From assembly GCF_055900595.2 (NCBI RefSeq), contig NZ_CM148325.1: a stretch of DNA of 64,000 nucleotides. One strand, written 5' to 3'. Below, piece after piece: positions 26,959 to 31,919 of the stretch (its first letter is position 1; each line of letters begins with the position of its first letter). The notes beneath the pieces were generated by a model that was not told the origin of the DNA, did not search any database, and saw only the letters and a program-made list of their open reading frames with translations. The position numbers were made by a program, and so were the translations under genes.

Positions 26959-27018
26959 CAGGCGTAAAAAAAGCAGGGAATTATCCCCGGCTTTTGTGGC
27001 TGATGACAAACAGAAAAA

Positions 27019-27049
27019 TGCCTGATGCGCTACGCTTATCAGGCCTACA
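27019..27049. repeat. REP element in yfeA-nupC spacer
   Basis: tgcctgatgcgctacgcttatcaggcctaca, same REP unit as at 3939-3969. Confidence 0.55.
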
Positions 27050-27059
27050 TGGAATTGAA

Positions 27060-27084
27060 GCCGGGGAATTATCCCCGGCTTTTT
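27060..27084. terminator. Bidirectional rho-independent terminator (yfeA / nupC), GGGG-N6-CCCC hairpin
   Basis: 8-bp stem gccgggga/tccccggc, 4-nt loop, T5 on plus strand; A/T-rich on the other side. Confidence 0.55.
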
Positions 27085-27100
27085 AATTAATGAATTGGAC

Positions 27101-28303
27101 TTACAGCACCAGTGCTGCGATTGACGCAGACAGCACACTCACCAGAGTAGAGCCGTAAACCAGTTTCAGACCGAAGCGAGAAACCACGTTACCTTGTTCT
27201 TCATTCAGGCCTTTAACCGCACCGGCGATAATCCCGATAGAAGAGAAGTTAGCGAAGGAAACCAGGAACACAGAGATGATGCCTTCAGCACGCGGAGAGA
27301 GCGTGGAAGCAATTTTCTGCAGATCCATCATTGCAACGAACTCGTTGGAAACCAGTTTGGTCGCCATAATACTGCCCACCTGCAGTGCTTCACTGGAAGG
27401 AACACCCATCACCCACGCAACCGGATAGAAGATGTAGCCCAGGATGCCCTGGAAGGAGATGCTGTAGCCAAACCAGCCAGTCACAGTGGCAAACAGTGCG
27501 TTCAGCGCAGCGATCAGGGCGATAAAGCCGATCAGCATCGCGGCAACGATAATAGCAACTTTGAAACCTGCCAGAATGTATTCACCCAGCATTTCGAAGA
27601 AGCTCTGACCTTCGTGCAGGTTGGACATCTGAATGTTTTCTTCACTGGCATCAACACGGTAAGGGTTGATCAGTGACAGCACGATAAAGGTGCTGAACAT
27701 GTTCAGTACCAGCGCCGCAACGACGTATTTCGGCTCCAGCATCGTCATGTATGCACCAACGATGGACATCGACACGGTGGACATCGCCGTAGCTGCCATG
27801 GTGTACATACGATTGCGGGAGATTTTGCCGAGGATATCTTTATAGGCAATAAAGTTTTCAGACTGACCCAGAATCAGAGAGCTGACGGCGTTGAAGGATT
27901 CCAGTTTGCCCATACCGTTGACTTTGGAGAGCAGGAAACCAATTGCGCGGATAATCACCGGCAACACGCGAATGTGCTGGAGAATACCAATCAGCGCAGA
28001 GATAAAGACGATTGGGCACAGCACTTTCAGGAAGAAGAATGCCAGGCCTTGATCATTCATGCTACCAAAGACGAAGTTAGTCCCTTCGTTGGCAAATCCG
28101 AGCAGTTTCTCAAACATTTCGGAGAAGCCTTTCACGAAGCCCAAACCAACGTCGGAGTTCAGGAAGAACCACGCCAGTAACACTTCGATAACAAGCAGTT
28201 GAATAACATAACGGATACGAATTTTTTTGCGGTCGCTGCTTACCAGCAGTGCGAGAATCGCAACAACGGCAAGTGCCAGTACAAAATGAAGGACGCGGTC
28301 CAT
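27101..28303 (-). CDS. nupC: Nucleoside:H+ symporter NupC (start trimmed to MDRVLHF)
   Basis: 400 aa from trimmed start; concentrative nucleoside transporter family membrane profile. Confidence 0.95.
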
Positions 28304-28395
28304 ATTTGCTCCAAATATGAGGCAGGTTAAATTTCCGTGCACATTCTATGTAACATGGTTAAGGAAAACGAGATCTGACACACACTATAATGACG

Positions 28396-28433
28396 TCCTG
28401 TGACAAGCTTCAAAAATAGTGAGCTGTCATACA
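28396..28433 (-). promoter_or_regulatory. Two tandem CRP-like sites upstream of nupC (CytR/CRP-type promoter architecture)
   Basis: tgtgaCAAGCTtcaaa (28399-28414) and agtgaGCTGTCataca (28418-28433) approximate TGTGA-N6-TCACA. Confidence 0.3.
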
Positions 28434-28570
28434 TTTCTGCTATGTTGTGTATGGAAGCTGAAAGTTATGTAAATGTGCTAACATTAAACATAATCACAAC
28501 ATTCAAGTCATCAATCTTTTCGTCGTCATAGTTCTGGTCTTTCAAAGAAATCATCACAATCCATTTAAAT

Positions 28571-28589
28571 GAATTTGATAATCATTCTC
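28571..28589 (+). promoter_or_regulatory. Fur box upstream of mntH
   Basis: gaatttgataatcattctc matches the 19-bp Fur consensus GATAATGATAATCATTATC at about 15 of 19 positions. Confidence 0.45.
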
Positions 28590-28604
28590 GTTTGACATAG
28601 CATG

Positions 28605-28626
28605 AAACATAGCAAAGGCTATGTTT
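28605..28626 (+). promoter_or_regulatory. MntR operator upstream of mntH
   Basis: Perfect palindrome AAACATAGC-AAAG-GCTATGTTT ending 13 nt before the mntH ATG. Confidence 0.6.
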
Positions 28627-28629
28627 TAG

Positions 28630-29877
<1,248 letters not shown>

Positions 29878-31716: not shown

Positions 31717-31919
31717 GGTCTATTCCTTATGCGGGGTCAGATACTTAGTTTGCCCAGCTTGCAAAAAGGCATCGCTGCAATTGGTGCTGAAACGATAAAG
31801 TAATTGTGTGACCCAGATCGATATTTACAGGGAGCCTGCCTTTCCGGCGTTGTTGTTATGCCCCCAGGTATTTACAGTGTGAGAAAGAATTATTTTGACT
31901 TTAGCGGAGCAGTTGAAGA

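Follow-up and report, generated by a model that had tools for sequence, protein, structure and literature searches.

The window analysed here is a 64-kb stretch of an Escherichia coli chromosome, and the feature under study, a 38-bp stretch at 28396-28433, lies within the 335-bp intergenic region between the divergent genes nupC and mntH. The nupC coding sequence occupies 27101-28303 on the minus strand (an ORF of 1,203 nt, encoding 400 amino acids plus stop, with its ATG at 28303), and in the ORF listing mntH runs from 28639 on the plus strand. A 451-bp query across the intergenic region has matches in 5,424 of 5,426 complete E. coli genomes, with nupC and mntH annotated there, which confirms the identity that a preceding sequence-only reading had given to the gene. 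That reading also took nupC to be co-regulated by CytR and CRP, in agreement with the literature, where it is a recognised member of the regulon that is regulated by both proteins, induced by cytidine and by the absence of glucose, and co-induced with tsx, nupG and udp. Because the intergenic region aligns with that of K-12 MG1655 without indels (98% identity over 335 aligned bp), K-12 data can be transferred to the window base for base. An Rfam scan of the intergenic region gave nothing meaningful. On the other side of the gene, the nupC–pdeA (yfeA) gap at 26959-27100 carries no insertion sequence in the window; in K-12 it holds IS186C, and an IS421-family transposase occupies it in a strain whose nupC promoter region is identical.

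Kim et al. 2012, in their table of K-12 start sites, list a nupC start at 2511031(+), with a 33-nt 5'UTR and the upstream sequence ...CATAGAATGTGCACG. In the window this start is a G at 28336 on the minus strand, 33 nt upstream of the ATG, and positions relative to transcription are given from it below. It was mapped in glucose minimal medium from only 8 reads, and there is room for a different CRP-dependent start under inducing conditions; the supplements of Mendoza-Vargas 2009 and of the Cappable-seq paper, which may be incomplete, contain no match that would serve as a second source. The -10 hexamer TAGAAT of the promoter lies at 28343-28348 (minus strand, -12 to -7). For comparison, a scan of species-representative genomes yielded 80 Enterobacteriaceae nupC loci with 77 distinct upstream sequences, and every one of the 77 contains the motif that flanks the -10, CATA[GA]AATGTGCA; it keeps a constant distance to the ATG in 74 and is displaced by 3 nt in the remaining three. 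The 5'UTR (28304-28335, minus strand) carries the Shine-Dalgarno sequence GGAG at 28312-28309. The whole 33-nt leader is almost invariant in the 77 sequences, well beyond GGAG, and has no Rfam match; translational control or a role as an sRNA target is possible.

The sequence-only reading had described the 38-bp stretch as two imperfect TGTGA-N6-TCACA motifs in tandem, about 100-130 bp upstream of the nupC start. Both are located as it stated: site 1 (TGTGACAAGCTTCAAA; TTTGAAGCTTGTCACA in the nupC sense) at 28399-28414, with its centre at 28406.5 or -70.5, and site 2 (AGTGAGCTGTCATACA; TGTATGACAGCTCACT in the nupC sense) at 28418-28433, with its centre at 28425.5 or -89.5. The centres are 103.5 and 122.5 bp from the ATG, and the mapped start is downstream of both, which removes the objection, foreseen by that reading, of a transcript starting upstream of the two sites. 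The arrangement is a tandem only in the sense of two 16-mers that are 3 bp apart, 19 bp from centre to centre. The motifs are also of unequal quality: site 1 has a single mismatch to the consensus, whereas site 2 is a weak look-alike with three mismatches in the ten specified bases.

Matches to TGTGA-N6-TCACA with at most one mismatch number three in the 64 kb against 2.03 expected, and as a bare pattern site 1 is unexceptional for a sequence of this length; it is, though, the sole intergenic one among the three. A CRP matrix was built from 106 CRP sites under ChIP-seq peaks in ETEC H10407 (Haycocks et al. 2015), with the nupC site excluded, and was made symmetric before 63,985 window positions were ranked. 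With 10.8 bits, site 1 ranks 6th among them and stands at the 27th percentile of the 106 ChIP-seq sites, i.e. 27% of the bound sites score lower. The other high-scoring window matches that were checked lie inside long ORFs, except one in the yfeO-glk spacer. In this divergent intergenic region TGTGACCCAGATCGAT at 31807-31822, about 100 bp from both start codons, scores 11.3 bits, above site 1. The table of Haycocks et al. 2015 gives a single motif for the mntH/nupC peak, TTTGAAGCTTGTCACA, which is identical to site 1 in the window when read on the opposite strand, and two motifs each for the cdd, udp and mtlA peaks; the resolution of ChIP-seq cannot separate sites 19 or 30 bp apart, the distances that concern us here. 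CRP genomic SELEX likewise recovered nupC among the known CRP targets, and the supplement of the Crp ChIP-exo paper, possibly incomplete, holds no nupC entry. Site 1 is a real CRP site, bound in vivo according to the literature and already documented, and in this half of its proposal the sequence-only reading was correct.

The matrix scan, which had been suggested as a check, separates the two motifs in the same way as the mismatch counts: site 1 is strong, but site 2 scores only 4.45 bits (rank 126 of 63,985), below 97% of the ChIP-bound sites, and does not score within the range of CRP sites bound in vivo. Site 2 is absent from the list of matches with at most two mismatches, and those with at most three number 199 in the window, about one per 322 bp. 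Taken by itself, this one sequence makes site 1 credible and puts site 2 at chance level. In K-12 site 2 contains GATCACT and scores 6.2 bits; the lineage of the window has GCTCACT, and most genera have GATCACT. The corresponding 81-bp stretches of the window and of K-12 are each found exactly in about 1,150-1,180 of roughly 5,425 genome records.

Conservation across the 77 Enterobacteriaceae sequences gives a different view of site 2, and reveals a third element that the sequence-only reading had missed. This is a weak CRP-like site (TGTGTGTCAGATCTCG in the nupC sense, 6.5 bits) at 28369-28384, with its centre at 28376.5 or -40.5, i.e. in the class II position. Site 1 scores at least 7 bits in 67 of the 77 sequences, always exactly at -70.5, and the -40.5 site scores at least 4.45 bits at exactly that position in 75, at a constant 30 bp from site 1. 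A score of 4.45 bits or more is found for site 2 in 57 sequences (52 of them exactly at -89.5), and at least 8.2 bits, the 10th percentile of bound sites, in only five. When matrix scores are averaged over the 77 sequences, -70.5 (z 5.2), -40.5 (z 4.5) and -89.5 (z 3.9) are the top three of 325 positions, and the spacings among the three elements are fixed at 30 and 19 bp, which leaves 49 bp between the outer two. Information per column of a MAFFT alignment was compared between half-sites and spacers. It is 2.06 bits in the half-sites of site 1 against 1.15 in its spacer (other columns 1.61), 2.05 against 1.26 for the -40.5 site, and 2.15 against 1.12 for site 2, which thus has the same signature as site 1. 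The consensus of site 2 across the sequences is TGTAT-N4-GATCACT. Site 2 is thus under constraint though it is a poor CRP match, and since its half-sites are conserved and its spacer is free, it is probably functional, in a role that is unproven. Half-sites as conserved as those of site 1 sit uneasily with the treatment of site 2 as a bystander. Enterobacter, Lelliottia and Leclercia have, in addition, a CRP-like TGTGAAG(C/A)(G/C)TAGCACA of 11.4-12.3 bits about 178.5 bp upstream of the nupC ATG, without a counterpart in Escherichia (loci L035, L037-L040, L042, L043, L046-L050, L052, L057, L058, L064, L067 and L069 of the comparative set).

The positions of these elements relative to the mapped start can be compared with those from which CRP is able to activate. 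Simple class I CRP sites lie near -61.5, -71.5, -82.5 or -92.5, and the class II position is at about -41.5. Site 1, within 1 bp of -71.5, would be in a class I activation position, and both it and the third site at -40.5 are compatible with activation. Site 2, at -89.5, misses -92.5 by 3 bp, and its phase is off by about a third of a helical turn. In the data of Haycocks et al. 2015, CRP sites cluster near -40.5 and -92.5. Other ways of placing a promoter or a regulator here were rejected. A class II role of site 1 would call for a start near 28365 and for ttGATC as the -10, with 2/6 matches. A sigma-70-like pair, TTGAAG-18-TATAGT, overlaps site 1 at 28384-28413 on the minus strand, and its TATAGTG block, which reads TATAAT on the plus strand, is conserved across genera. 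As a promoter with a start near 28377 it would have CRP at -29.5, and the K-12 table has no such start; if it is active, CRP at site 1 would cover its -35. The conservation of this pair hints at a second promoter, which our main explanation does not cover. TTGAT-N4-ATTTT, read as an FNR site, matches weakly, and tsx, nupG and udp share the anaerobic induction that was reported for nupC in Shigella.

The two flagged motifs had been taken for the architecture expected of a CytR/CRP co-regulated promoter, with CRP on sites 1 and 2 together in a CRP-CytR-CRP complex. The presence of nupC in the CytR regulon is in line with this, as is the conservation of both sites at a fixed 19-bp spacing. K-12 upstream regions of established CytR/CRP promoters were scanned with the same matrix, giving CRP pairs spaced by 53 bp in deoP2, 52 bp in udp, 50 bp in nupG, 50 bp in cdd (plus a weak match 18 bp from the distal site) and 33 bp in tsx. 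Spacing was the ground on which the sequence-only reading had itself made the pair refutable, and the 19 bp of nupC does not match any of these. TGCAA/TTGCA CytR pentamers are found between the CRP pair in deoP2, udp, nupG and cdd, and not in tsx. K-12 nupC has no such pentamer from the 16-mer of site 2 (-97) to about +12, and neither of the two bases by which the window differs from K-12 in this region creates one. Thus no pentamer lies between or beside sites 1 and 2, and this nupC promoter lacks a CytR operator that lies between its CRP sites at a distance of no more than about 5 bp from either. A gap of only 3 bp leaves no room for CytR, and because the two centres are 19 bp apart, bent CRP-DNA complexes probably could not form on sites 1 and 2 together. 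The low score of site 2 and the single site that the ChIP-seq motif search called at nupC, against two at cdd, udp and mtlA, point the same way. We consider simultaneous occupation of the two sites in a CytR complex highly improbable; the regulatory pair is not the one that was flagged.

Alternative nupC pairs come nearer to CytR spacing, namely -40.5/-70.5 with 30 bp and -40.5/-89.5 with 49 bp. A cassette at -40.5/+12.5 (53 bp) was also tried and discarded, as the +12.5 match has no bipartite signature and the whole 5'UTR is invariant. The 49-bp pair suggests that site 2 might be an alternative, low-affinity CRP position, to which CRP would shift from -70.5 when the repression complex forms, the pair with -40.5 then holding CytR. 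A repositioning of CRP of this kind is said to occur at cdd, which has a similar triple of matrix matches (32 and 18 bp apart) and has been described as having three CRP sites. The 49-bp distance is close to the known 50-53 bp, and conservation at site 2 is bipartite, as at a CRP site. The clade of Klebsiella and Raoultella also carries a consensus CytR-type TTGCAAT between the CRP-like sites at -70.5 and -40.5, at position -57 (loci L020, L023, L026, L027 and L029-L032), where E. coli has TCATTAT. However, E. coli has no CytR pentamer anywhere between -97 and +12, the conserved left half TGTAT of site 2 is without the G that matters most for CRP, and the third of a helical turn noted above puts -89.5 out of phase with -40.5. 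A shift of CRP onto site 2 therefore seems unlikely to us. Within the same clade, K. pneumoniae carries another TGCAAT, which lies 4 bp downstream of the TTGCAAT at -57, and Raoultella has lost the left half of site 1.

Where CytR would bind instead was sought in the promoter as a whole. According to a comparative study of the CytR regulon, binding sites had been proposed for every member except nupC; the study itself found only low-scoring CRP sites at nupC and called for experiments. The CytR SELEX consensus is quoted in the literature as AYGTGCAAC / GTTRCATT. For the CytR octamer GTTGCATT, the best conserved match in the nupC promoter is at -18, with at least 6 of 8 positions in all 77 sequences and TTGCA in 15, and TGCAA is present at -5 in 14 of the 77. 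The nupC octamers read GTTRCATA at -18 and then AATGTGCA(C/A) at -9, a pair that flanks the -10. In the window this candidate CytR operator is GTTACATA-G-AATGTGCAC at 28337-28354 on the minus strand, where it would both flank and overlap the -10.

These observations could also be combined into an unusual CytR/CRP module, conserved in Enterobacteriaceae, in which the -70.5 site sits in the usual CytR slot and repression takes place without the classical sandwich. The strongest CRP site of nupC would hold the slot that a CytR operator occupies in cdd, deoP2 and udp. The weak -40.5 and -89.5 sites, 49 bp apart, would flank it, and the CytR-like octamers would hug the -10, and repression would come about either because CytR drives CRP off -70.5 and onto -89.5, or through direct occlusion of the -10. 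We put this forward as a speculative scheme with perhaps a slender chance of being right.

Site 2 need not be a CRP site at all. An ATA-N9-TAT box of the Nac (LysR) type, ATACATTTCTGCTAT, lies at 28429-28443 and overlaps the left half of site 2, with its centre at about -100. In this explanation the left half would be the TAT arm of a Nac box that raises nupC expression under nitrogen limitation, and the right half would belong to the footprint of Nac or of another factor. The box resembles the Nac ChIP-exo motif ATAagnaaaanttAT and is present at -100 in 54 of the 77 sequences, and a strain deleted for nac expresses less nupC, from which study the authors report activation by Nac. In the window, on the other hand, ATA-N9-TAT occurs at chance frequency (13 found against 12.4 expected), so that the box is weak evidence alone, and its centre is farther upstream than is usual for Nac activation sites. 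Salmonella is without the ATA arm and yet keeps TGTAT...GATCACT (7.9 bits), and its GATCAC half is what textbooks show as a half-site for CRP. The supplement of the Nac paper, possibly incomplete, has no nupC entry. A Nac box in place of a CRP site can be entertained, then, but it is a doubtful account of site 2.

It might also be supposed that the two sites serve transcription towards mntH, from upstream starts in that direction or as promoter elements of these starts. Kim et al. 2012 list mntH-direction starts at 28453 and 28492 on the plus strand, 186 and 147 nt upstream of mntH, and the ChIP-seq table assigns its peak to both mntH and nupC. But from 28453 sites 1 and 2 would be at -46.5 and -27.5, and from 28492 at -85.5 and -66.5, none of which is a position of CRP activation; the fixed distances are those to the nupC -10 and ATG, and some 200 bp separate the sites from the main promoter-like element of mntH. 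As promoter elements of the start at 28453, too, they fit poorly. There is thus very little to recommend a role of the sites in mntH transcription. The same table has a nupC-direction start inside mntH (about 28651, minus strand, 348 nt upstream of nupC), and none of these three starts coincides with the canonical promoter of mntH; the cells had been grown with MnCl2 and glucose (Kim et al. 2012). The promoter-like pair TTGATA-17-TAGCAT at 28575-28603 (plus strand), also listed by Shimada 2014, belongs to the mntH control region at 28575-28626. On the same strand this region contains TGATAATCATTCTC at 28576-28589 and the perfect inverted repeat AAACATAGC-N4-GCTATGTTT at 28605-28626. We take TGATAATCATTCTC to be Fur-box-like, and the inverted repeat presumably is an MntR box. 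A small ORF at about 28569-28658 (plus strand) that overlaps the mntH start is ypeD (b4819) in K-12, and its counterpart is annotated “hypothetical protein” in other RefSeq genomes. Nearer to site 2, at 28468-28483, the nupC sense reads TGTTAGCACATTTACA, which resembles the 16-bp palindrome TGTTAGAATACTAACA upstream of deoC, a sequence that we assume to be the DeoR operator. Both score about 5.3-5.6 bits with the CRP matrix. As such palindromes reach these scores, weak CRP matches of the form TGT.A...T.ACA can be the operators of other factors.

Our preferred explanation, to which we give a probability of roughly 0.7, is that the 38-bp stretch is part of a cAMP-CRP-dependent nupC promoter, in which site 1 is the principal, class I site and site 2 is not a partner in a CytR sandwich. 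In this mechanism cAMP-CRP at site 1 would activate the promoter of the gene for a nucleoside:H+ symporter, from the face of the helix on which CRP can contact the C-terminal domain of the RNA polymerase alpha subunit. The weak -40.5 site beside a poor -35 probably adds a class II contact, so that nupC would be turned on when glucose is absent. Site 2 would be a low-affinity CRP-like element that probably has some function, whether as another position for CRP or within a Nac box. Repression by CytR, which is known genetically, would have to use a geometry other than that of deoP2, and the best candidate operator for it may be the one that flanks the -10. The strong motif is a published CRP site, and the feature as such is ordinary and already known in substance. 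Its value is modest: it is routine annotation, for a genome scan, of the promoter of an E. coli gene that has been studied well, with a candidate CytR operator added. By the comparative study cited above, nupC is the one classical gene of the CytR regulon without an experimentally worked-out operator layout, and the conserved arrangement of three sites at -40.5, -70.5 and -89.5 is now pointed out for its promoter.

Comparison with known systems shows which parts of the nupC promoter are shared. It is like simple class I CRP promoters in having a site at -70.5, a good -10 and a poor -35, and unlike them in adding two conserved weak CRP-like sites and control by CytR. With the sandwich promoters deoP2, udp and nupG it has in common the same regulators, the same physiological logic (induction by cytidine and the absence of glucose) and a CRP site at about -40.5. 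Their CRP pairs, however, are spaced by 50-53 bp and enclose TGCAA/TTGCA operators, and the flagged nupC pair is 19 bp apart without an operator.

The tsx-p2 promoter is closer in layout, as it and nupC each have two close CRP-like sites, 33 bp apart in tsx and 30 bp apart in nupC (-70.5/-40.5), with no TGCAA pentamer between them in either. In tsx, too, the stronger CRP site is the distal one, near -74.5. The distal site of nupC is far stronger than that of tsx-p2 (10.8 against 5.1 bits), and nupC has a further conserved element 19 bp upstream. Low-scoring CRP sites have been reported for tsx, and CRP and CytR footprints exist for tsx and not for nupC, according to the comparative study of the CytR regulon.

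The cdd promoter resembles nupC in its triple of CRP-like sites, with spacings of 32 and 18 bp (outer distance 50 bp) against 30 and 19 bp (outer distance 49 bp), and the octamer GTTGCATA that is present in cdd is also found in the nupC promoters of several genera. The two differ in how these parts are ordered: in cdd the strong CRP site is proximal (15.1 bits) and the octamer lies between CRP sites, whereas in nupC the strong CRP site is in the middle and the octamer abuts the -10.
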